From the IMG/VR virus record IMGVR_UViG_2537562194_000035: DNA of 41,291 bases. One strand, written 5' to 3'. The translations under genes and the position numbers were made by a program. This DNA comes from a virus. Taxonomy: Duplodnaviria > Heunggongvirae > Uroviricota > Caudoviricetes. The notes beneath the pieces were generated by a model. It was not told the origin of the DNA. It worked only from the letters and a program-made list of their open reading frames with translations, and did not search any database. Shown piece after piece: positions 753 to 22,513 of this stretch (the stretch's first letter is position 1; each line of letters opens with the position of its first letter).

Positions 753-1001
753 ATGAGTAGAAGAGAAGTTTCAGATCACGATTGGCCGCCTGAAATCATC
801 AAGGCGCGCTTACACATGGCTGGCTTATCACTGCGCTCTTTATCTTTAAAGGCTGGTTACAGCAGGGATTCGCTGAAAAGCGTATTACGTACTCCTTGCC
901 GACCGTATCAGCAAATAATTGCTGATGCTCTTGGGGTATCGCCTGAAGAAATCTGGCCCAGTCGATACCAGGTTAAGAGCTATATGAGAAAGGCGTCATG
1001 A
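753..1001 (+). CDS. ner: Ner-like DNA-binding protein (Ner/Nlp family)
   Basis: 82-aa ORF first in early operon with GAGGAAG SD; C-terminal ...IIADALGVSPEEIWPSRYQ closely resembles Mu Ner. Confidence 0.85.
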   Translation: MSRREVSDHDWPPEIIKARLHMAGLSLRSLSLKAGYSRDSLKSVLRTPCRPYQQIIADALGVSPEEIWPSRYQVKSYMRKAS

Positions 1002-1002
1002 T

Positions 1003-3093
1003 ATGTATGTCATTGCAAAAGAACTGATTGGCGCGCCCGGAATGCCTGCTACAACAAAAGGTATTCGCCAGGCATTACAACGTTACGTACAAGGGAAAAG
1101 CTGTTGTTCCCGTCGTCGCTCAGGCTCTAAAGCAACTGAATACAGCATCGACTGTTTACCTGAAGTGACGCAGCAGGCATTACGTGAACGCTACGCCCTG
1201 CAACTGATGACTCAAAAAGTCGATGAATCACCGGCTCCAGTGGTGACAAAGGCCAGACGCTCGCCTGCCGTGGTTGATGCGGTGGAGGCATATCGCGGAT
1301 CACCACAACTGATGGTCGAACGCCTTAATGCCCTGACTGAAAACCAGCGCCAGGTGGCTGATGCACGAATCGCGATCGTCAGCGAAGTTCTGAAAGTCGC
1401 GCAACAACCTGGTTTCAGCTGTGCGAAGGCTATCCGGTTTATCGTTGACAACCTGGCACGTTCGCAGCTGGACGAGCGCATTGTGGCAATGGTTGAGACG
1501 GCGAACGCCAAAAAGGGAAACAGCCGCGCGTTAAGTGAAATCACGCTGAAACGCTGGATTGCGGCCTTTAACAAGGCGCAGAACGCCGCTGAACGCCTGC
1601 TTTTACTGGCACCGGGTAAGCGCCAGGAAATAAAAGCCGAAGATATTAACTGGCTGCCCGAATTTCTGGCGCAGTATCGCCAGTCAAACGGCCGACCAAT
1701 GACCGAGGCTTACGAGGATTTTGTCGCTGAATGGCAGCACCGGCACGCTGATGAGCCTTATATGCTCGATATCATGCCGTCTTATGACACCATTCGCCGC
1801 GCAATGAAGAAACTGCCGGAAGTGGTGAAACAAAAAGGCCGGGTGACCGGCAGTGAATACCGCCAGCTTGAGGGATTCACGCGCCGCGACTGGTCCAGAA
1901 TGCCGGTGAATTATGTCTGGATTGGTGACGGTCACGGCATGAAGCTGAAATGCGCACACCCGGTTCACGGTCGGCCATTTGCACCGGAAGTGACCTTTGT
2001 TATCGACGGTGGCACGCGCTTTGTGGTGGGCTGGAGCCTTGACCTGGCTGAAAATGTTTTCGCCGTAGCCGGTGCCATACAGCACGGCATTCGCCATCAC
2101 GGCAAACCGTTTCTGTATTACTCGGATAACGGCTCCGGGGAAACCGCCGACATCCTGGATAAGGAGGTTGTGGGGATACTGCCGCGACTGGGGATTAATC
2201 ACCCGACCGGGATTGCCGGTAATCCGCAGGGACGAGGCATTATCGAACGGCTTAACCGCACATTACCGATGCGCATAGCCCGTAAATACCGCACCTATTT
2301 CGGGAAAGGTGCAGATCGCGAGACGTTACGCAAAACCAACCGCGATTTACGCTCGGCATTTACTGCCCTGCAACAGGGCAAACGGCTGAACGCCCGGCAG
2401 CAGTCAGCGATGCGTGATTTACCGTCCTGGTCTGAACTGATTGATGCCATTCGTGACGGTGTTGAGTGGTACAACAACCGGCCGCACGATGAATTACCGG
2501 TGAAGCCGAACGGCAAGCATTACAGCCCGGCGGAGTTCAGAAAAAAACGCCTGGCGGAAGAGGACACGGAAATTGAATGGCTGTCCGATGTTGAGCTGCG
2601 GGATATGTTCCGGCCGATGGTGGAACGCCCTGTAAGACGCTGTGAAATACGCTGGCTGAATAATATTTACTACGCGCCCGAGCTGCGTGACGAGCATGGC
2701 CGTAAGGTGCTTATCAGCTATGACATTCATGATGCCGAACGAATTACCGTACGTCGCCTGGATGGCAGCGTGATTTGCGAGGCGGTATGGGACGGCAATA
2801 AACGCGAAGCCTTCCCGGTCAGCGCGGAATACTACAAACAGCAGCAACGCCTTAAAGGCATGCGTAAACGCGCAGAGGAAAAAATCCGTGATGCCGAGGA
2901 TGAGGTTGTCAACGTGCTGGAGCACAAGCCGCAGGAGCCCTGGCTGGAAAACATATACCGCCCTGTGGGTAATACGGTGACCGTTCAGCAACCGGTCGCT
3001 GACGATGAACCTGATGAAGAATACGAGCGTAATTTCCAGCGGGGATTGCAGTTGCTGGAAGCGAAATTAAAAGAAAATGACCCGCTGGCCTGA
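1003..3093 (+). CDS. A: Mu-type DDE transposase A
   Basis: 696-aa ORF directly after ner; size, position and Mu A-like sequence. Confidence 0.9.
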   Translation: MYVIAKELIGAPGMPATTKGIRQALQRYVQGKSCCSRRRSGSKATEYSIDCLPEVTQQALRERYALQLMTQKVDESPAPVVTKARRSPAVVDAVEAYRGSPQLMVERLNALTENQRQVADARIAIVSEVLKVAQQPGFSCAKAIRFIVDNLARSQLDERIVAMVETANAKKGNSRALSEITLKRWIAAFNKAQNAAERLLLLAPGKRQEIKAEDINWLPEFLAQYRQSNGRPMTEAYEDFVAEWQHRHADEPYMLDIMPSYDTIRRAMKKLPEVVKQKGRVTGSEYRQLEGFTRRDWSRMPVNYVWIGDGHGMKLKCAHPVHGRPFAPEVTFVIDGGTRFVVGWSLDLAENVFAVAGAIQHGIRHHGKPFLYYSDNGSGETADILDKEVVGILPRLGINHPTGIAGNPQGRGIIERLNRTLPMRIARKYRTYFGKGADRETLRKTNRDLRSAFTALQQGKRLNARQQSAMRDLPSWSELIDAIRDGVEWYNNRPHDELPVKPNGKHYSPAEFRKKRLAEEDTEIEWLSDVELRDMFRPMVERPVRRCEIRWLNNIYYAPELRDEHGRKVLISYDIHDAERITVRRLDGSVICEAVWDGNKREAFPVSAEYYKQQQRLKGMRKRAEEKIRDAEDEVVNVLEHKPQEPWLENIYRPVGNTVTVQQPVADDEPDEEYERNFQRGLQLLEAKLKENDPLA

Positions 3094-3164
3094 AATAAAA
3101 AAATAACCCGAGCGGCGACTCAGGTTATTTGATTAAACAAGGTATCAAATGAGAGGTTAATAAT

Positions 3165-4097
3165 ATGACTGATATTAACGATGTAATCAAGACCATTGAT
3201 GAACTTATTGATGGCGGCGTACTGACGCAGTATGCCATCGCCAGAGAGGCGGGAATTTCCGACGGCACATTATCGGCTTTCCGCAAGGGGAAATATAAAG
3301 GCGATAACGCCGCTGTGGCTGCTTCCCTGCGTTCCTGGTATGAAAACTGGAATAAACAAAGCGCACTGCCGGAACCGCCGCAGTTTGTGGAAACGCAGAC
3401 AGTCCAGGAGCTGCGCGCACTGTTTCAGGCGGTTCGTCTGATGGGCTGTATTAACGTTATTGTGGGCGTACCGGGTGTGGGTAAAACGGCCACTGCCCGT
3501 AATTACTGCCAGGAGCAACCAAACACCTGGATGATCACCCTGTCACCCGCGCACTCCAGCGTCACGGAGTGTCTGCTGGAGCTGGCCGATGCGCTGGGGA
3601 TTGATTACACCCGCGCGAACAAAGGGGCATTATCCCGCGCCATCCGCCGTCGCCTGATGGGAACGCGTGGACTGGTGATTGTGGATGAGGCGGATCATCT
3701 GGGTATTGACGGTCTGGAGCAACTCCGGGCAATTCAGGACGCCACGGGGATCGGGATGGTGCTTATTGGTAACCCGCGCGGATTGTTTAAAGGTGGACGC
3801 CGCGCCTTTGATGATTTATCGCGCCTGTTCAGCCGTCTTGCCCGTACAAAACAACTTCGCAAGGCCAAAAAGGCGGATGTGCTGGCCATTGCCAGGGCGT
3901 GGGGGATCAGTGGTGAGGCCGAGCTGGCCGTCATGCAGGCTATCGCTGAAAAGCCGGGAGCGTTACGCGTTCTGACACATACGCTTAACCAGGCGTGGCT
4001 CACCGCCAGCGGTGAAGGCGCGGCGCTGACAGAAAAACATATTAATGCGGCCTTTAAAGAGGTTTATACCAACCCTGAATTACTCTCACAGGTGTGA
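3165..4097 (+). CDS. B: Transposition target-DNA activator B (AAA+ ATPase)
   Basis: 310 aa; Walker A GVPGVGKT, Walker B VIVDEADHL; strong similarity to Mu B along its length. Confidence 0.9.
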   Translation: MTDINDVIKTIDELIDGGVLTQYAIAREAGISDGTLSAFRKGKYKGDNAAVAASLRSWYENWNKQSALPEPPQFVETQTVQELRALFQAVRLMGCINVIVGVPGVGKTATARNYCQEQPNTWMITLSPAHSSVTECLLELADALGIDYTRANKGALSRAIRRRLMGTRGLVIVDEADHLGIDGLEQLRAIQDATGIGMVLIGNPRGLFKGGRRAFDDLSRLFSRLARTKQLRKAKKADVLAIARAWGISGEAELAVMQAIAEKPGALRVLTHTLNQAWLTASGEGAALTEKHINAAFKEVYTNPELLSQV

Positions 4098-4099
4098 TT

Positions 4100-4321
4100 A
4101 TGGCGGTATTTAATATTCCTGATATTTACGGACGCTTTTACCTGGTTAATTTCGATAACGTGAAGGTGATTTCACTGGCCGAAAATAAAGAATGTGGCGA
4201 TTTACTTTTTGAATTTAATGACCGCACACGAATGGTGATATCTGCCGGACTTGATCGCGAAGGTGCGACAGACGTTTACAGCGGAATATGCCGTTCTGTT
4301 GGTGCGAAACAAGTCAGCTAA
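4100..4321 (+). CDS. Small early protein, Kil-like by position and size
   Basis: 73-aa ORF immediately after B, as kil is in Mu; no sequence motif confirmed. ATG 4100 preferred over the overlapping GTG 4094. Confidence 0.45.
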   Translation: MAVFNIPDIYGRFYLVNFDNVKVISLAENKECGDLLFEFNDRTRMVISAGLDREGATDVYSGICRSVGAKQVS

Positions 4322-4333
4322 ATGAGGTGTTAT

Positions 4334-4588
4334 ATGAATATGCAATCCTGCGGTAACAAAATGAATTTATTCGACTCCCTGAACAGCGCGCGCCGTCTGA
4401 CCGAACTTGCCGGTGCGGTACTGGAACGCAGTAAGCGCTATCCGCAACGTTTTGCACTGAAAACCACGCCGCCGGTAGGCAACGTGCAGGGAACCGGTGA
4501 AATTGAAATCACCATACAGACCAACGGCCTGCGCCGCCGTGTGAAGGCCACCCGCATCAGCGGCTGCACGGTTTACTGGGAGGTGTGA
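4334..4588 (+). CDS. Hypothetical early protein
   Basis: ORF with GAGGTG SD before ATG 4334 (track start 4322 also possible). Confidence 0.5.
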   Translation: MNMQSCGNKMNLFDSLNSARRLTELAGAVLERSKRYPQRFALKTTPPVGNVQGTGEIEITIQTNGLRRRVKATRISGCTVYWEV

Positions 4589-4589
4589 G

Positions 4590-4871
4590 GTGAAAAAAAA
4601 TCTCATTGCATGGGCGTGGTCGAGTGGTCTTATTGAGTTTGGTTACGTCCTGCCGGAAGGTGCATTGCCGATAGTTGCCGGAAAGCCTGCCACGGTACGG
4701 CATGTGATTGAGGTTATGGCGCGTCATGGACGTGATGAACAGGAGCAGTTACTGGTTCCGGGGATACCGGAAGCGGTGACGGAGGAAGAAGCCTTTAATG
4801 CCATGATTCGGTTCTGCCGTGAGGTCAGACGCCGGGTCAGTTATCCAAACAGAACGAGGACCAGAGGATGA
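4590..4871 (+). CDS. Hypothetical early protein
   Basis: 93-aa ORF, GTG start preceded by GGGAGG; tightly packed in the early operon. Confidence 0.5.
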   Translation: MKKNLIAWAWSSGLIEFGYVLPEGALPIVAGKPATVRHVIEVMARHGRDEQEQLLVPGIPEAVTEEEAFNAMIRFCREVRRRVSYPNRTRTRG

Positions 4872-5140
4872 GTAAAGTCGTACGCATTATTTTCGAATAC
4901 AAGGAGCACGTTATCCATAAAAACGCTGATGGAACAGTGCGCATGGGGGTAAGTCTGGACATACGTTCAACCGGGATAAAGCAGAAAGGTGATGGACCCG
5001 CCATGATTTTTGGGGTGGTTATGCTCGCGGAAAGCAGAGACTTTGCTGAACTTGTGGCAATGAAAGCCAGTGCGCTCATGAAAGATATGAGCATGCGTTC
5101 CGGGGTTATTAAAGGTAATGAATTTAATCAGCAGGGGTAA
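4868..5140 (+). CDS. Hypothetical early protein, paralogue 1 (N-term MSKVVRIIFEYKEH)
   Basis: ORF with GAGGA SD; N-terminus near-identical to the next gene. Confidence 0.6.
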   Translation: MSKVVRIIFEYKEHVIHKNADGTVRMGVSLDIRSTGIKQKGDGPAMIFGVVMLAESRDFAELVAMKASALMKDMSMRSGVIKGNEFNQQG

Positions 5141-5144
5141 TTCC

Positions 5145-5438
5145 ATGAGCAAAGTACGCGTTATTTTTGAATTTAAGCATGTTTCGCATGACGAAAAACC
5201 GGCAGGCAATGACTGTGTTGAAGTGCATGAAAAGATTGGTGTGGATGTAAAAACAGAACGTGATACGAATAACAGGCCGACGTCACTCTGTGGCGTTTAT
5301 GCAAGTATTCTCCAGTATCACAGTCCTGAAATTATTCAGTTTCTCTCAGCGGAATTTCAGGCATCTGTACAGGCTTTTGGGGCGGATGCCATCATTAAAC
5401 GCCACCGCGTGCATAAAGCATCAGGCACACTGCAATAA
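5145..5438 (+). CDS. Hypothetical early protein, paralogue 2 (N-term MSKVRVIFEFKHV)
   Basis: ATG 5145 preceded by AGGGG; track ORF starts upstream at 5118 but the paralogous N-terminus begins at 5145. Confidence 0.6.
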   Translation: MSKVRVIFEFKHVSHDEKPAGNDCVEVHEKIGVDVKTERDTNNRPTSLCGVYASILQYHSPEIIQFLSAEFQASVQAFGADAIIKRHRVHKASGTLQ

Positions 5439-5449
5439 GGAAAAACAAA

Positions 5450-5980
5450 ATGGCTAAACGTGTTACAAAATTAAAGGCCGCAGCCGAGGCTGCACCGCAG
5501 ACCCGCGAAGAAGTCAGCCGCGATATCCGTACCCTGGGCGATATTCAGCGAGAGGCGCTACGGCTGGAAACGGCGATGAATGATGAAGTGGCAGAAATCA
5601 CCGCCCGTTATACGCCGCAGATTGAAAACCTTAAAAAAGAAATCAAAGTGCTTTTTAAGGGGATTCAGGACTGGTGCAAAACCAACCGCGATGAGCTGAC
5701 GAACGGCGGCAAAACCAAAACAGCCAATCTGACCACCGGAACAGTGTCATGGCGGCTGGGAAATCCATCATGCAGCGTCAGCCGTGATGTGGAAGGTGTG
5801 ATTGAAATGCTGCGCCGTATGGGGCTTGAGCGATTCATCCGCACGAAAGAGGAAGTGAACAAGGAAGCGGTCCTAGCGGAGCCGGATGCAGTGAAAGGCA
5901 TTGCCGGTATTAAGGTGAATAAAGGCGCTGAAAGTTTTTATGTCGAGCCTTTTGAACAGGACGCCGGACTGAATAAATAA
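5450..5980 (+). CDS. gam: Host-nuclease inhibitor Gam (Ku-like DNA-end binding)
   Basis: 176 aa with extensive similarity to Mu Gam (e.g. ...NRDELTNGGKTKTANL..., ...FIRTKEEVNKEA..., C-terminal PFEQDAG). Confidence 0.9.
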   Translation: MAKRVTKLKAAAEAAPQTREEVSRDIRTLGDIQREALRLETAMNDEVAEITARYTPQIENLKKEIKVLFKGIQDWCKTNRDELTNGGKTKTANLTTGTVSWRLGNPSCSVSRDVEGVIEMLRRMGLERFIRTKEEVNKEAVLAEPDAVKGIAGIKVNKGAESFYVEPFEQDAGLNK

Positions 5981-6077
5981 CACCGCATTAAATCTTTAAA
6001 TATCACATCGTTTTAAGTATGGCGCTCGCGTCAGGGGACTGCCTGCGCCTGTAAACTGAAAATAAGGAACAGGATAT

Positions 6078-6620
6078 ATGGCATATTTTTATTTCAAATT
6101 AGACCGTGTGCAGACAAATAAATATTTCACCAAATATCAACAGACTGTTTTACCGCTACGCAACAGTATTCTTCGGGCATTACTGAAAAATACAGGCGCT
6201 GCCGGATTGCGCTTAAAGCCGTTTGCCATGGACGTAATCAGTGAGTTTTATTTTTCTGGTGCTCTGCCTGCGGGCTGGCGTAAGCGCGATGATGTGGCTT
6301 TTATCGGGGACGGACCGTGCTTTATTGCCAGACCTGATGAGTCATGCCCTGAAGGACCGGCGATTGCCGCAATGATTGAAGCCGCTGAACGCGAGTTAAG
6401 AAAGCGTCCTGATTTCCTTGTCTGGCTCTGTGAAAAGCTGGGGGTAATGAGAATCCCCTCCATGTTTAACATGGACTCCTGGTGGACCCCGTCGCTCTCC
6501 CGTGATGCCCTGTGCGTGGTGTTTAAAGTAGGCGCTTATGGCAGGGAAATAAAAGGGGGTATTCCTGAAGAATGCCAGGAGATTAAACATTCTGAATATG
6601 TGGCGCTGACGGAGGAATAA
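6078..6620 (+). CDS. Hypothetical protein, first gene of coupled early block
   Basis: 180-aa ORF with AAGGAACAGG SD after a 97-bp gap; no motif recognised. Confidence 0.55.
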   Translation: MAYFYFKLDRVQTNKYFTKYQQTVLPLRNSILRALLKNTGAAGLRLKPFAMDVISEFYFSGALPAGWRKRDDVAFIGDGPCFIARPDESCPEGPAIAAMIEAAERELRKRPDFLVWLCEKLGVMRIPSMFNMDSWWTPSLSRDALCVVFKVGAYGREIKGGIPEECQEIKHSEYVALTEE

Positions 6621-6623
6621 TTC

Positions 6624-7157
6624 ATGATTGGTGCAAAAGTGCTTGAAGGGGTTAAAAACTGGCTGAGTATTTACGGGCGTCTGACCTGCGGCATTCTGGC
6701 TGAAAAAATGAATATGCCGCCATCCTCGATGGTTTATTTTCTGCGTGATGCGGTCGATGCCGGGGTGCTGACGGAATGTAACGGTTTTTATGATATTCCG
6801 CGTCCCCGCCCGGTGCAGCCGGTTCGTCGCAAATGCAGCCAGGAAGGTGCGGCTGATGATGTTCAGTGGTGCAGCTTCAGAAAATCCCTGCCGTGGATTG
6901 AGGGGCATGATATTCCGTCAATGGCGTGGGAATTTGCTCAGGGCGTTCTGACCTGTGAAACCGTTTATGTGGTGGCTGAAGTTGATGAGCAGGCCATGAA
7001 AGAAGGCGTGCCCCAGTTTGTGATGGCGTATATCGACATACGCCTGGGTGTCATTATCTGCGGTTTAAGCGGCTGGAATATCACCTCGCGCGTTCTGCGT
7101 TACCTGATTGTTGACCGGACGGCCGCGCCTGCCGGGATATCTGCGGAGGTGGCGTAA
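6624..7157 (+). CDS. Hypothetical protein
   Basis: 177-aa ORF starting 4 nt after the previous stop. Confidence 0.55.
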   Translation: MIGAKVLEGVKNWLSIYGRLTCGILAEKMNMPPSSMVYFLRDAVDAGVLTECNGFYDIPRPRPVQPVRRKCSQEGAADDVQWCSFRKSLPWIEGHDIPSMAWEFAQGVLTCETVYVVAEVDEQAMKEGVPQFVMAYIDIRLGVIICGLSGWNITSRVLRYLIVDRTAAPAGISAEVA

Positions 7158-7672
7158 TGTTCTTTAAAACATCAAACCCTTCCGCGCTGGCCGCGTGGCA
7201 AAAATATCAGCAGGACTGCCAGAAAGTTAAGGATGAGGCAAAACGCCTTGAGGCCGTGCTGAATGTTGCGTGCCGGTCGGTATTTGTATCCGGTATCAGT
7301 GGCTTTTGTTTTAAAGGGCTGCGCTTTATGGATGACAAATATCCTTTTCATCGCGACTTATGGCGAAAACCGACTGCGTCGAATGGCTGGAGCTGCACAC
7401 CGCGCACATCACGTATTCCCAAAGCCCTGCGCGTTGCCTCTGACGAACTTAACAGTCTGTGGCGTGAATATTCGCCCGTCACGTATGCCAGAACCGATGC
7501 ACTGTTGTTCTGGCTGGGTATTGATTTCTCGGCAATCATGTTTGGCCCTGTGAAGTGGTTCTGCGTTGACGATGTGATTTACCTTGAGTGCGGCGTAAAA
7601 CCCGCAAATCAGAAAATGACCGAAATTCTGTCTGATGAGTTTTATGCTGCTGAAAAGCGAGTCAGGGGGTGA
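7157..7672 (+). CDS. Hypothetical protein
   Basis: 171-aa ORF; start overlaps the previous stop. Confidence 0.55.
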   Translation: MFFKTSNPSALAAWQKYQQDCQKVKDEAKRLEAVLNVACRSVFVSGISGFCFKGLRFMDDKYPFHRDLWRKPTASNGWSCTPRTSRIPKALRVASDELNSLWREYSPVTYARTDALLFWLGIDFSAIMFGPVKWFCVDDVIYLECGVKPANQKMTEILSDEFYAAEKRVRG

Positions 7673-7675
7673 TGC

Positions 7676-8227
7676 ATGATGATATTACAACCCATGGGGA
7701 GAAAAGGCCGTGCACCCGCTCATGTTCGCGCATGGACACCTGAAGAAGATGCGCTGCTGATTGCGCTTTATCCATCCACCCCGGTTAAGGATATTGCTGT
7801 CAGGATAAAAAGAAGTTTCTGGGGTGTACATAACCGGATTGTTTTATTACGCGGTACTTACCCGGAGTTGCTCAAATGCAAACGCCTCAGATTTAAACCT
7901 GATGAAGATAAATTTATCCGAAAAAATGCCAGAACAATGACCGGTAAGCAAATAGGAGAATATCTGGGGCGAGACCGGGATTCTGTCCACAATCGGGCGC
8001 GATATATTGGCGTAAGCATGAAAAAATACGGAGAGTTGCTGCCCTTCACCCGCATACCTGACGATGATGTTCGTCTTATTCGTGAATTACGGGATGCTGA
8101 ATCACCACGGCGTCTTACCTTTAGGGAAATCGGCGAGAAATTTGAATTATCCGAGGGCACGGTGAGTTTTATTTATCACCGTCGTCGGACTGCCGAAGAT
8201 GTTGTATTACGGGAATTAATGCCATGA
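7676..8227 (+). CDS. Putative DNA-binding protein with three tandem HTH/Myb-like repeats
   Basis: 183 aa; three repeats of a W/F-x-P-E/D-E-D...helix pattern (WTPEEDALLIALY..., FKPDEDKFIRKN..., IPDDDVRLIRELR...LTFREIGEKFELSEGTVSFI). Confidence 0.5.
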   Translation: MMILQPMGRKGRAPAHVRAWTPEEDALLIALYPSTPVKDIAVRIKRSFWGVHNRIVLLRGTYPELLKCKRLRFKPDEDKFIRKNARTMTGKQIGEYLGRDRDSVHNRARYIGVSMKKYGELLPFTRIPDDDVRLIRELRDAESPRRLTFREIGEKFELSEGTVSFIYHRRRTAEDVVLRELMP

Positions 8228-8475
8228 TAACGACATTATTTGTTGAATCAGATGAACCCCTTGTGTGTGCCGTCGGAATGCCGGTCTGTGGCGGAACGCT
8301 GACCGGTGTTTATTTCGGGGATTTGCGCGGTTATCCCTGGCATTCACTGAATGATGCTTTCCCGCCTGATATGGAGGCTGTCGTGCTGATTGTTCAGTAT
8401 GGTGACCAACAGGAACTGCGCATCGGCCATATGGGGTATGAAGGCTTTTTTATTGATGAAGAAACCGGAGCCTGA
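8224..8475 (+). pseudogene. Early gene truncated at its 3' end by the IS629-like insertion
   Basis: Reading frame runs into the IS left terminus, whose TGA supplies the stop. With the IS and one GCC copy removed, the frame continues about 20 codons to a TGA at 9846-9848 overlapping the next gene's ATG. Confidence 0.7.
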
Positions 8476-8526
8476 ACCGCCCCGGAAATCCTGGAGACTA
8501 AACTCCCTGAGAAAGAGGTAAACAGG

Positions 8527-8853
8527 ATGACTAAAAATACTCGTTTTTCCCCCGAAGTCCGTCAGCGGGCGATTCGTATGGTTCTGGAAAGTCAGGATGA
8601 ATATGACTCACAGTGGGCGGCAATTTGTTCCATTGCCCCAAAGATTGGCTGTACGCCGGAGACTCTGCGTGTCTGGGTTCGCCAGCATGAGCGGGATACC
8701 GGGGGCGGTGATGGTGGGCTCACCAGCGCTGAACGTCAGCGTCTGAAAGAGCTGGAACGTGAAAATCGTGAACTGCGCCGCAGTAACGATATCCTTCGCC
8801 AGGCTTCCGCTTATTTTGCGAAGGCGGAGTTCGACCGCCTCTGGAAAAAATGA
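8527..8853 (+). CDS. IS629-like transposase OrfA (HTH, leucine-zipper region)
   Basis: 108 aa, [22 protein letters not shown]..., recognised from memory as IS629/IS1203 OrfA. Confidence 0.9.
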
Positions 8854-9740
8854 TGCCACTGCTGGATAAGCTGCGTGAGCAGTACGGGGTCGGACCGGTA
8901 TGCAGCGAACTGCATATTGCCCCGTCAACGTATTACCATTGTCAGCAACAGCGACATCATCCGGATAAACGCAGTGCCCGTGCGCAGCACGACGACTGGC
9001 TGAAGAGAGAGATACAGCGCGTATACGATGAAAATCATCAGGTGTACGGTGTGCGTAAAGTCTGGCGTCAGTTGTTACGGGAAGGAATCAGGGTGGCCAG
9101 ATGTACAGTGGCACGTCTCATGGCGGTTATGGGACTTGCCGGTGTTCTCCGGGGTAAAAAGGTCCGTACGACCATCAGCCGGAAAGCCGTTGCCGCAGGC
9201 GACCGCGTAAACCGTCAGTTCGTGGCAGAACGACCTGACCAGCTGTGGGTGGCTGATTTTACTTACGTCAGCACATGGCAGGGCTTCGTCTATGTGGCGT
9301 TTATCATTGATGTGTTTGCCGGATACATCGTGGGGTGGCGGGTCTCATCGTCTATGGAAACGACATTCGTGCTGGATGCGCTGGAGCAGGCGTTGTGGGC
9401 CCGTCGTCCGTCTGGCACCATCCATCACAGCGATAAAGGCTCTCAGTATGTGTCACTGGCCTATACGGAGCGACTAAAAGAAGCCGGATTACTGGCATCA
9501 ACAGGGAGTACAGGCGACTCGTATGACAACGCGATGGCTGAGAGCATCAATGGTCTTTACAAAGCGGAGGTAATACACCGTAAGAGCTGGAAAAACCGTG
9601 CAGAAGTGGAACTGGCCACACTAACGTGGGTGGACTGGTATAACAATCGACGATTGCTGGGAAGGCTGGGCCATACTCCTCCGGCAGAAGCAGAAAAAGC
9701 TTATTATGCTTCCATCGGAAACGATGATCTGGCAGCCTGA
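8850..9740 (+). CDS. IS629-like transposase OrfB (DDE catalytic domain)
   Basis: 296 aa; overlaps orfA at an A6 run (8845-8850), a likely programmed -1 frameshift site for an OrfAB fusion. Confidence 0.9.
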
Positions 9741-9844
9741 GTTCACAGATAAAACACTCTCCAGGAAACCCGGGGCGGTTCAGCCTGCCTTGAAGATGAG
9801 GACGGACAGGTGACGCACTGGTGCCATATTTCAGCTTTACCGGA

Positions 9845-10213
9845 ATGACGGGAGGTGAATGCGTGAGAAGTTATATTGATAATGAAAAACTGAAGACAAT
9901 CAGCGACTGTCTTAGCTTGCTGGCAAAAATAAAAGAAACCATTGAAGAGATTAAATTTCAGCTTGAATACGAACCCTGTGGCGATGATACATTGCGTAAC
10001 TCTGCCAGAAAAGCACTGGCTGTCTTTCAGAAACAACGCCGGACTGTTGAATACCGCCTTGCTGTATTGCGCCAGGAGGAAAAGGAAAGAAATATAAGAC
10101 GTCATGAACTCGTTAATGATTTTCTTGTTCGTGAATTAAAGGAGCGTGTGCCGGAGTCGGTATTTTTTGAGTGTGAGGCTGTTGCCCGTAGCAAAGCACT
10201 GGAAACTGATTAA
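9845..10213 (+). CDS. Hypothetical early protein
   Basis: ATG 9845 overlaps the reconstructed stop of the interrupted upstream gene (ATGA); the track ORF begins at 9821 only because of the IS-induced frame change. Confidence 0.5.
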   Translation: MTGGECVRSYIDNEKLKTISDCLSLLAKIKETIEEIKFQLEYEPCGDDTLRNSARKALAVFQKQRRTVEYRLAVLRQEEKERNIRRHELVNDFLVRELKERVPESVFFECEAVARSKALETD

Positions 10214-10225
10214 ACAGGCAGGTGA

Positions 10226-10561
10226 ATGATGAGTATTGAATTAAGATCGTCTTATGAATATCGTAAAATTCTCATCGCCGGAGGCATGAAACCGGAAGAT
10301 GCAGAAAAAATCGTTTCTTTTATGGATAAAGAATGTGACAAACGGGATATGCCAGAAATTATTATGGATGACATGATTCTGCATTCAGCCGTAGCGTTAA
10401 GCCCATTATGGATTGTGCATTCTCTTGCTGAAATTGCCAAAGGCACCGATAAACAGGCAGCTGTTGCTGCCCTTCAGACGCTTAATGAAATGCGTATATC
10501 TCCACGCCCGACATTAATACATATGATTCTGTCCAGCATGGAGGATAAAGCAAATGAATAG
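10226..10561 (+). CDS. Hypothetical early protein
   Basis: 111-aa ORF with AGGTGA SD. Confidence 0.5.
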   Translation: MMSIELRSSYEYRKILIAGGMKPEDAEKIVSFMDKECDKRDMPEIIMDDMILHSAVALSPLWIVHSLAEIAKGTDKQAAVAALQTLNEMRISPRPTLIHMILSSMEDKANE

Positions 10562-10751
10562 TCTACCCGCTGGATGGGCGCGGCCACTAATGGCCAGGAA
10601 GCATCATTTTTTTAAAACAGGCGAAAATATCAGTATATGTGGACGGTGGTTATATCTGGCTCATAATCGCGAGCCGGATACATTTGAAAGCCCTGATGAC
10701 TGTGCCGAATGCCGCAGAAGACTGAATAAGGAGAAAGATAATGGACAGTAG
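10554..10751 (+). CDS. Small hypothetical protein with C-terminal Cys cluster (DCAECRR)
   Basis: 65-aa ORF with GGAGGA SD. Confidence 0.45.
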   Translation: MNSLPAGWARPLMARKHHFFKTGENISICGRWLYLAHNREPDTFESPDDCAECRRRLNKEKDNGQ

Positions 10752-11037
10752 TTCGCAGTTGTTCTGGTATTTATATATCACATCCTTTTTCGGTGCATTC
10801 GTCATTACACGATGGCTGTGCCGGAAAGTTATCAGTATTTTTCATAAAAAATACCTGATTGGGCAGGCTGCGACTTCTCTGATTAATGCACTGGCCAGAT
10901 ATCATAAGGGGGAATGCTACTCAAGAATAAAAACTGATGATGGTTTTAATATTTTTGTGATTCCTCCGGAGTATCGGGTTCAGCTCGATCGGGAAAATAA
11001 TACCTATCATATCCGCAGGAGTGTTGATACAGCATGA
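10741..11037 (+). CDS. Hypothetical protein with N-terminal transmembrane helix
   Basis: 98 aa, AGGAG SD; hydrophobic stretch LFWYLYITSFFGAFVITRWL. Confidence 0.5.
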   Translation: MDSSSQLFWYLYITSFFGAFVITRWLCRKVISIFHKKYLIGQAATSLINALARYHKGECYSRIKTDDGFNIFVIPPEYRVQLDRENNTYHIRRSVDTA

Positions 11038-11543
11038 GAGGGAAACTGATATCTGCCATTCATGTGGCAAAACGCGAGCTTGCCCTGGATGATGAAACCT
11101 ACACATCCGTACTACTGGCGGTCACCGGCAAAACCAGCTGCCGGGATATGTCACCGGATGAGTTATCCCGCGTGCTGGATGTTTTCAAAAAACGCGGTTT
11201 TAAAGTGCGTCAGAACCCGGTTAACCGGGCCTTAAAACCGGGTACGGTGACCGCTAAAATTCGCGCCATCTGGAAGGTGATGCACCGGCAGGGCTTTATC
11301 TCTGATGGTGCGGAAACCGCCCTTAACCGCTGGGTGAAATCGCAGACGGCCGCGCAAAACGGCGGCGAAGGTGTGGCAAACTGGCAGTGGCTGGAGCAAC
11401 ACCCCGCCCTGGCCTCAGATGTGCTGGAGCGTCTCAAGCGATGGCACCGCCGCAAAATGCTGGCCGCGATGGGAATGCCCGAACGCACGCTGATGGGGTA
11501 TGACGCCGTTTGCAGGCAGTATGAAAAATCACTTCCCCGTTAA
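11034..11543 (+). CDS. GemA-like protein (Mu gp16 family)
   Basis: 169-aa ORF; position just before Mor/C and general resemblance to the Mu GemA family; assignment from memory, not verified. Confidence 0.55.
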   Translation: MRGKLISAIHVAKRELALDDETYTSVLLAVTGKTSCRDMSPDELSRVLDVFKKRGFKVRQNPVNRALKPGTVTAKIRAIWKVMHRQGFISDGAETALNRWVKSQTAAQNGGEGVANWQWLEQHPALASDVLERLKRWHRRKMLAAMGMPERTLMGYDAVCRQYEKSLPR

Positions 11544-11547
11544 CCCC

Positions 11548-11580
11548 AAATCCCGCCACAACGCGGGATTTTTATTTTAA
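11548..11580 (+). terminator. Rho-independent terminator at end of early operon
   Basis: Stem ATCCCGC / GCGGGAT (11550-11556 and 11563-11569), 6-nt loop, followed by TTTTATTTT. Confidence 0.7.
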
Positions 11581-11612
11581 ACTTACCGGGAACGCGAGAA
11601 CCGGAGGCTGAT

Positions 11613-12038
11613 ATGGCAGAAACTCAGATGAGCATGTTTGGTGGTGACAGTGAGCAACTGCACGCCCTTATCGACCGCCTTGATGACATCCCTGATGATG
11701 TTCTCAAAAAGAACTGGCCGCGGACCCTGTCAGAACTGGTTGAAGTCACCGGCGCAGAACTTCAGCGTCAGGGGATTGAGCCGGTACTGGCCGGCAAACT
11801 GGCACGCAAGGTGGCTGCGGCTCAGGCAGCCTATATGGGCGGACGGGGTTATTACCTGCCGGTCGGGGAATCTCTCTTTGCCGAGCTGCGAAACAATGAG
11901 ATATTTTCGCGCTGGGACCGGGGCGAGAAAATTGAATCCCTTCGCCGCCATTACCGGATGTCAGAAACCCAGATTTATACCGTCATACGTGAACAGCGCC
12001 GTCTGCATCTGGCAAGAACACAACCGCCACTTTTCTGA
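11613..12038 (+). CDS. Mor/C-family transcriptional activator (middle or late gene activator)
   Basis: 141 aa, GGAGG SD; C-terminal HTH region ...GRGYYLPVGESLFAELRNNEIFSRW...ESLRRHYRMSETQIYTVIREQRR typical of the Mu Mor/C family. Confidence 0.75.
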   Translation: MAETQMSMFGGDSEQLHALIDRLDDIPDDVLKKNWPRTLSELVEVTGAELQRQGIEPVLAGKLARKVAAAQAAYMGGRGYYLPVGESLFAELRNNEIFSRWDRGEKIESLRRHYRMSETQIYTVIREQRRLHLARTQPPLF

Positions 12039-22126: not shown

Positions 22127-22513
22127 ATGAATGAACATCACACTGTGGCAGCAACAGATGATTCAGGTCTTCAGGTCAGTGGTGACAATTCTGTCACGGT
22201 GCTGGCAGAAGTGCGTTGCAGTCGTTCGGCGTTTCGTCGTGCGGGGTTCCTGTTCACGCGTGGACGTCAGCAGGTTGAGGTCACCCCGGAGCAGCTTGCC
22301 CGACTGGAGGAGGAGCCATGCCTCACTGTGCGAATACTACAGACGTCTGCTGATGATGCGGGGAGCGTGGCGGGTGTGGTTCATGCAGTGGCCGGTACAG
22401 ATTTAGCCGAAGCCGAAGCCGAAGCCGAAGCCGAAGCCGAAGCCGAAGCCGAAGCCGGACAGGATGCTCCCCGGAAAAAGACCGGTAACAAAGCGGAACA
22501 GGCCCGTGCATGA
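22127..22513 (+). CDS. Hypothetical head-module protein containing an (Ala-Glu)8 repeat
   Basis: 128 aa, GCGGAGGG SD; encodes ...LAEAEAEAEAEAEAEAEAGQ... Confidence 0.6.
   Translation: MNEHHTVAATDDSGLQVSGDNSVTVLAEVRCSRSAFRRAGFLFTRGRQQVEVTPEQLARLEEEPCLTVRILQTSADDAGSVAGVVHAVAGTDLAEAEAEAEAEAEAEAEAGQDAPRKKTGNKAEQARA
22406..22453 (+). repeat. Perfect hexanucleotide tandem repeat (GCCGAA)8, plus an imperfect ninth unit GCCGGA
   Basis: Read directly from the sequence. Confidence 0.95.

Follow-up and report, generated by a model that had tools for sequence, protein, structure and literature searches.

An IS629/IS1203 copy inside a small early gene of the Mu-like prophage Phi12 in E. coli O111:H- strain 95NR1

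The window, i.e. the whole stretch of 41,291 nt that was analysed, is identical to E. coli 95NR1 from position 4863794. 95NR1 and 95JB1 are O111:H- isolates of the 1995 Adelaide HUS outbreak, and both genomes were completed by Forde 2019, where the prophage considered here was named Phi12 and described as 'Mu-like Myoviridae' (PMC6602927). Compared with strain FRIK944, the prophage starts 272 bp ahead of the window and ends at window position 40327, which makes 40,599 bp with the insertion sequence (IS) and 39,286 bp without it; the PHAST coordinates given for Phi12 stop at the invertase gene (Forde 2019, PMC6602927). The gene set assigned by PGAP in 95NR1 and its relatives is Mu-like, including a repressor, a Ner-like protein, MuA transposase, MuB ATPase, Gam, GemA, a Mor/C activator, Mu-type head and tail genes and com/mom, with GemA and Mor also recognized by Pfam. 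The early genes follow each other closely on the plus strand from approximately 753 to 11543, and the best early-promoter-like site is found at 663-692. Except for the gene interrupted by the IS, all Phi12 genes in 95NR1 are annotated as intact. The features of the interrupted locus and of the distal part of the early region are collected in Table 1.

Table 1. Features of the interrupted early gene, the inserted element and the end of the early region (window positions)
Feature	Position	Strand	Remarks
Target gene, truncated 5' part, 83 codons	8224..8475	+	WP_000633439.1; stop TGA supplied by the IS (8473-8475)
Target-site duplication GCC, left copy	8470..8472	+	
IS629/IS1203 (IS3 family, IS51 group), complete, 1310 bp	8473..9782	+	transposase co-oriented with the phage early operon
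IRL, left terminal inverted repeat	8473..8497	+	5'-TG start
orfA, 108 aa	8527..8853	+	HTH_Tnp_1 (Pfam, 2.4e-12)
OrfAB fusion	8527-9740	+	
ALIL frameshift-stimulating pseudoknot (RF01497)	8808..8924	+	Rfam 121.5 bits, E 2.9e-32, gathering score 50, full-length
orfB, 296 aa	8850..9740	+	HTH_21, rve (DDE; 9e-28) and rve_3 (Pfam); -1 frame relative to orfA
IRR, right terminal inverted repeat	9758..9782	+	CA-3' end
Target-site duplication GCC, right copy	9783..9785	+	
Target gene, displaced 3' end, last 20 codons and stop	9786..9848	+	
Next early gene, 116 aa (phrog_6158)	9863..10213	+	GTG start, GGAGG Shine-Dalgarno
gemA (gp16 family), last ORF before the terminator	11034..11543	+	Pfam GemA 2e-30; 43% identity to Mu GemA
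Intrinsic terminator-like hairpin and T-tract (to ~11581)	11548..11581	+	9-bp stem, -12.9 kcal/mol
Mor/C-family activator gene, the only one in the prophage, just upstream of the lysozyme gene	11613..12038	+	Pfam Mor 2.8e-32

The boundaries of the element are exact to the base by sequence inspection. It starts with TGAACCGCCCCGG and finishes with CCGGGGCGGTTCA, the two ends agreeing in 22 of their first 25 positions, so its terminal inverted repeats are imperfect; a repeat search places the arms at 8469-8497 and 9758-9786, with 86% complementarity. The pseudoknot match covers both the slippery A6 run (8845-8850) and the overlap of the orfA stop with the orfB ATG, and PGAP labels the locus as an intact programmed-frameshift 'IS3-like element IS1203 family transposase', together with an 'AL1L pseudoknot' feature. 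The IS3 family is thus represented here by a length within approximately 1.2-1.5 kb, TG...CA ends, overlapping orfA and orfB with the -1 frame, a predicted -1 frameshift signal, a 3-bp duplication (3 or 3-4 bp being expected) and near-identity to IS629/IS1203. The initial annotation had reported a complete 1310-bp IS3-family element with intact orfA and orfB and a GCC duplication; all of this was borne out, the direct repeat being present on both flanks.

Copies in O157:H7, O111 and other E. coli genomes match the element over all its 1310 nt with 100% identity, which is far beyond chance; among 5426 complete E. coli genomes, 3043 have a match that covers at least 80% of the query. The IS copies of the outbreak strains have been described as 99% identical to IS1203 of strain PH (Forde 2019, PMC6602927). 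Judged by its sequence, the element is an exact IS629/IS1203 copy with all testable IS3-family features; it is complete and apparently active. IS629/IS1203 is the dominant IS of EHEC O157, O111 and O26, and the copy at 8473-9782 is the same throughout, only its location being particular. At 8465-8485 on the minus strand, the left inverted repeat and the flanking phage DNA each contribute half of a terminator-like hairpin with a T-run after it; this hairpin is antisense to the early operon and probably fortuitous.

Removal of the element and one GCC restores an ORF of 103 codons that starts from the ATG at 8224 and ends with the TGA at 9846-9848, the insertion point being at codon 83/84. The intact gene is annotated as WP_000633440.1 (103 aa) in IS-free relatives. 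The restored protein matches phrog_6925 (1.9e-52) with residues 1-103 aligned to positions 1-112 of the 113-position profile, and in alleles from loci that are 88-91% identical to the 1600-nt empty-site query described below the frame is kept across the insertion point, with 94-95% amino acid identity. These comparisons indicate that the phrog_6925 target is a genuine early-operon gene, and that the ORFs on the two sides of the element are not naturally separate genes, related prophages having one continuous 103-aa frame. No Pfam domain was found in the restored protein, and phrog_6925 is a PHROGs family of unknown function. A tblastn search of the phage collection with the restored protein yielded two records only, both of them Stx phages with an inserted Mu-like phage, so isolated phages are uninformative on the function of the gene. 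The truncated protein lacks the last 20 residues, with two of the four cysteines among them, and is probably inactive.

The restored frame had initially been described as overlapping the start of the next gene. The continuous 103-codon ORF stands, but the overlap does not hold well: the restored stop overlaps an ATG at 9845, and the better-supported start of the next gene is the GTG at 9863. The latter is preceded by GGGAGGTG, is used as the start by PGAP, and is consistent with the phrog_6158 match, where 116 aa are aligned to positions 3-117 of the 118-position profile. Since this start is better supported, the 103-aa and 116-aa genes in the present allele are probably separated by 14 nt rather than overlapping. 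In a more distant allele (locus L007) the 103-aa gene and the next gene overlap by 4 nt.

The slot occupied by these two genes (8224-10213) is a variable cassette. In the Sakai prophage Sp18 and typical O157:H7 relatives, both genes are replaced by a single 61-aa hydrophobic ORF (ECs_5772; locus L010, positions 8912-9097; compare L008 and L009). Sp18 is predicted to be intact, and its DNA is packaged efficiently, although mitomycin C does not induce phages of the Sp18 type (PMC2669165). Since Sp18 has no 103-aa gene and its DNA is nevertheless packaged, the gene is dispensable for particle production, and, given that it occupies a variable cassette slot, the loss of the 103-aa protein alone should not matter for phage growth.

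Sp18 and phage 804-3 of FRIK804 belong to the same phage group as Phi12, 91-100% of the early region being aligned with identity of approximately 98% or higher. They share the identical junction of gemA, terminator and activator and are found at many integration sites; unlike Phi12, they have no IS, and it is the slot hit in Phi12 that holds the 61-aa ORF cassette in Sp18. The same phage is also present in O157:H7 strain FRIK944, where it is approximately 99.9% identical and integrated in ureC, and the same left end adjoins prpD, ureC, agaF, irp1, motA, lsrC, ygfK and other genes, in agreement with near-random integration. This near-identity in FRIK944, along with the many integration sites, points to a currently mobile phage group.

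The distribution of the insertion was analysed in the same 5426 complete E. coli genomes, with coverage of at least 80%. The occupied-site query spanned the left end of the IS, with 250 nt from the phage and 250 nt from the element, and was found in two genomes only, 95NR1 and 95JB1. The empty-site query was the reconstructed 1600-nt junction with the IS and one GCC deleted; it has a 100% full-length match in at least 12 genomes and is covered by at least 80% in 122, with the 103-aa ORF annotated there. The empty sites of other genomes have a single GCC, and the reconstructed junction is matched at 100%. The comparison with related prophages lacking the IS, proposed in the initial annotation, has thus revealed an empty site with an intact 103-aa gene.

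One of the empty sites is that of the O111:H8 strain 8B. The junction between host and prophage, located in a slipin-family gene beside yjbD and rluF, is common to 95NR1, 95JB1 and 8B only, and in 8B this chromosomal site is occupied by the same prophage in its IS-free form. The remaining differences between the prophages of 95NR1 and 8B (approximately 39.3 kb) are six substitutions, at window positions 642, 3798, 11504, 29042, 35854 and 38686, and a 12-bp indel in a hexanucleotide repeat. This near-identical IS-free prophage at the same site shows that the prophage was integrated first, and that the IS arrived later in the outbreak lineage. On these genome comparisons the insertion is recent and specific to the lineage of the 1995 Adelaide outbreak clone; the suggestion of a recent event, made initially from the intact ORFs and the duplication, agrees with the restriction of the occupied site to 95NR1 and 95JB1 and with the IS-free site in 8B, six SNPs apart.

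The insertion itself is already known, both from the published genome and as a catalogued copy: Table S3 of Forde 2019 lists it at 4872285..4873498 in 95NR1 and 4871941..4873154 in 95JB1, and its effect is not discussed there (PMC6602927). The same table gives 32 chromosomal IS1203 copies in 95NR1 and 33 in 95JB1, and Phi12 has its own entry among the prophages tabulated in that paper (PMC6602927). The importance of the copy beyond these two strains is small, as it is one of 32 or 33 in the published outbreak genome, and it cannot account for any difference between the two outbreak isolates, since both have it.

Taken together, the data make it very probable that IS629/IS1203 transposed into a 103-aa accessory early gene of Phi12 in the 1995 Adelaide outbreak lineage, after integration of the prophage; nothing was found in the structure of the locus that contradicts an IS insertion. 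Members of the IS3 family transpose by a copy-out-paste-in mechanism via a circular intermediate, with the OrfAB transposase produced by -1 frameshifting. In the case of Phi12, copy-out-paste-in by OrfAB would have resulted in the insertion at codon 83/84 and the duplication of GCC. The 103-aa protein would lose its last 20 residues and probably be inactivated, with phage growth presumably little affected by the loss itself, while transcription from the early promoter would now have to cross 1.3 kb of sense-oriented IS, causing at most partial polarity downstream. Overall, we expect that the gene is knocked out and that any polarity is partial at most.

What could be affected downstream depends on the organization of the end of the early region. 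The terminator stem (11548-11571), followed by TTTTTATTTT, is located 5 nt after the gemA stop. It is the sole strong intrinsic terminator of the early region and is identical in Sakai Sp18 and FRIK944. This hairpin with its T-tract is the probable end of the early transcript, in accordance with the end near 11580 proposed in the initial annotation. The activator gene follows the terminator. Its product resembles Mu C (39% identity, 105 bits) more than Mu Mor (27%, 52 bits), and its position, directly upstream of the lysozyme gene, is that of C in Mu. No recognizable promoter was found in the approximately 40 nt between the terminator and the activator start, so transcription of the activator may depend on read-through from the early promoter, in which case upstream polarity would matter.

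This organization differs from that of Mu, where gemA and mor are followed by the terminator t9.2 inside the middle promoter Pm, and then by C 0.8 kb further on, whereas in Phi12 the order is gemA, terminator, single activator, lysozyme gene. A single C-like activator placed after the gemA terminator suggests that regulation in the Phi12 group is a two-tier cascade rather than the three tiers of Mu. The Mu annotation also contains a semi-early promoter just upstream of gemA.

The initial annotation proposed polarity on gemA and the downstream regulators, and through it an effect on lytic development; this is plausible, but the sequence of the IS gives it no positive support. On its sense strand there is one weak terminator-like hairpin (-4.6 kcal/mol, with a poor T-tract), as compared with -12.9 kcal/mol for the gemA terminator. 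The sense strand is mostly G-rich, the C/G ratio being below 1 in most 100-nt windows, which argues for poor Rho loading; modest C>G windows are two, 8900-9000 and 9400-9500. No promoter-like site was found in the IS or at its right end. Translation can restart at orfA, which has its own ribosome-binding site, 51 nt after the stop of the truncated gene. Since no strong terminator is present in the sense-oriented 1.3 kb of IS, polarity is expected to be at most partial, acting on five small ORFs, gemA and, via terminator read-through, the C-like late activator. Some polarity is possible, because translation of orfB, approximately 0.9 kb, requires frameshifting or coupling; the estimate of a partial effect could err here, as much of the RNA of the IS may thus be ribosome-free and open to Rho. 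A literature search found no measured polarity of IS629, and for polarity in the Mu early operon the only usable statement was that Mor is encoded by the early transcript.

A stronger effect has to be considered, in which gemA and the C-like late activator would be starved of transcription from the early promoter, leaving Phi12 a 'grounded' prophage, which would be repressible and might still transpose, without completing late gene expression. The tight packing of the early genes on one strand and the lone strong terminator at 11548-11571 are in line with such an effect, as are the lack of a recognizable promoter before an activator that may depend on read-through and the analogy with Mu, whose early transcript encodes the activator Mor (PMC2582627). 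Moreover, IS elements have repeatedly hit the early operon in related prophages, e.g. IS1 in gam of TW14588, which fits IS hits as one route of prophage inactivation. On the other hand, a strong terminator is lacking on the sense strand of the IS, whose RNA is rich in G, orfA has its own ribosome-binding site and the next phage gene a strong Shine-Dalgarno sequence, and, given the semi-early promoter near gemA in Mu, internal promoters may exist here too. On balance, strong polarity seems rather unlikely to us, if far from negligible.

The nearest precedent comes from the same clone. In 95JB1, another IS1203 copy is located approximately 150 bp upstream of a type IIG methyltransferase gene, and the corresponding methylation is fully lost, for which the authors invoke premature termination (Forde 2019, PMC6602927). 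This association of an IS1203 insertion with lost activity of a downstream gene favours strong polarity: the element is the same, it lies inside an operon upstream of genes that possibly depend on read-through, and a polar effect has been proposed for both insertions. The two cases differ in that the methyltransferase insertion has a phenotype, the loss of CRARCAG methylation, whereas the Phi12 copy is a table entry only, and is present in both strains.

The extra length might also have consequences for packaging. If the additional 1.3 kb exceeded the capacity of Mu-like headful packaging, filling from the left end would lose the right end of the prophage and produce dead-end particles. With the IS, the prophage has 40,599 bp, as compared with 38,759 bp in Sp18, 39,180 bp in 804-3, 39,269 bp in FRIK944 and ~39,274 bp in 8B, so it is 1.3 kb longer than any IS-free relative measured. 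The Mu headful is only about 2 kb longer than the Mu genome. Insertions in Mu are reported, in work ascribed to Bukhari and Taylor (1975), to shorten or remove the host DNA at the right end. However, 1.3 kb is within the usual margin in Mu, and we regard a packaging defect as improbable.

IS elements have also entered the early operon of other prophages related to Phi12: IS1 is found in the 5' part of gam in TW14588 (locus L011, positions 4972-5666), IS1A in 2012EL-2448 and ISEc22 in 23CRST047. The 'X' mutants of Mu have IS1 in the early region, where essential early functions are hit and killing is abolished. In Phi12, the X mutants and the TW14588 gam::IS1 prophage alike, the one long early operon of a transposable phage is interrupted by an IS, but the X mutants are hit in essential functions, and Phi12 in a small accessory gene that lies downstream of A, B and gam.

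It is conceivable, and in our opinion very improbable, that IS629 and the Mu-like phage regulate each other, with the IS serving as a reversible 'grounding' switch on the transposable prophage. If so, early derepression would read into orfA and orfB, yielding more transposase, and replicative transposition of the phage would amplify the IS; polarity of the IS would throttle the single C-like late activator, and excision promoted by IEE could undo the throttling. IEE-promoted excision of IS629 exists in EHEC, including O111:H8 (PMC9943667), and the insertion in Phi12 may therefore be reversible. The existence of such excision also underlies the last alternative, that the IS-bearing state is ancestral and the empty sites arose by precise excision, or else is an assembly artefact, which is effectively ruled out, as the insertion is present in two separate PacBio assemblies and in the authors' curated IS table, the empty sites span many chromosomal integration sites, several serotypes and more divergent alleles, and only one outbreak clone has the occupied site.

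Phi12 provides a natural example of an IS in the long early operon of a transposable phage, with a near-isogenic IS-free partner in O111:H8 8B. The pair of 95NR1 and 8B could be used for measuring the polarity of IS629 or the packaging tolerance of Sp18-type phages.

Several other features of the prophage were observed. Its left end reads TGTAACC... and its right end ...GCGCTATA, with TTTGATACC present in both at nt 18-26. The right terminus is TA (reading ...CTATA; window 40290-40340, and locus L002, positions 11480-11540), as opposed to CA in Mu, while the left end is TG. A clean 5-bp target duplication of the prophage was not found at the three integration sites compared, which are flanked by CGAC (4 bp) in 95NR1, CGAT (4 bp) in SRCC 1675 and GTGAA/TTGAA (4 of 5) in FRIK944. 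The annotated right flank of both 95NR1 and 8B does not include the 3' part of the slipin gene; the genes found there instead are a hypothetical one of 207 nt, one for a nucleotidyltransferase and one for a zeta toxin.

The substitution at window position 642 (G here and in FRIK944, T in 8B) falls into the intergenic control region between the repressor and Ner genes, 21 nt upstream of the early-promoter-like site at 663-692. A perfect hexanucleotide repeat, (AGCCGA) x 8.8, is located at 22405-22457, inside an HI1506-related gene of the head region, and its copy number varies in frame, with two units fewer in 8B and three fewer in FRIK944. The stretch at approximately 36040-38080 (95NR1 4899834-4901873), between the Gin-like invertase and com/mom, contains a DUF6645 gene of 2 kb, then DUF1378, DUF826 and one gene on the reverse strand, and it looks like accessory cargo without a Mu counterpart. 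The absence of CTGCAG (PstI; the site of the resident EcoGIII) from Phi12 was noted by Forde 2019 (PMC6602927); in the whole 41.3 kb, with the IS and the host flank included, we find 0 such sites, as against 10.65 +/- 2.75 expected from shuffles.
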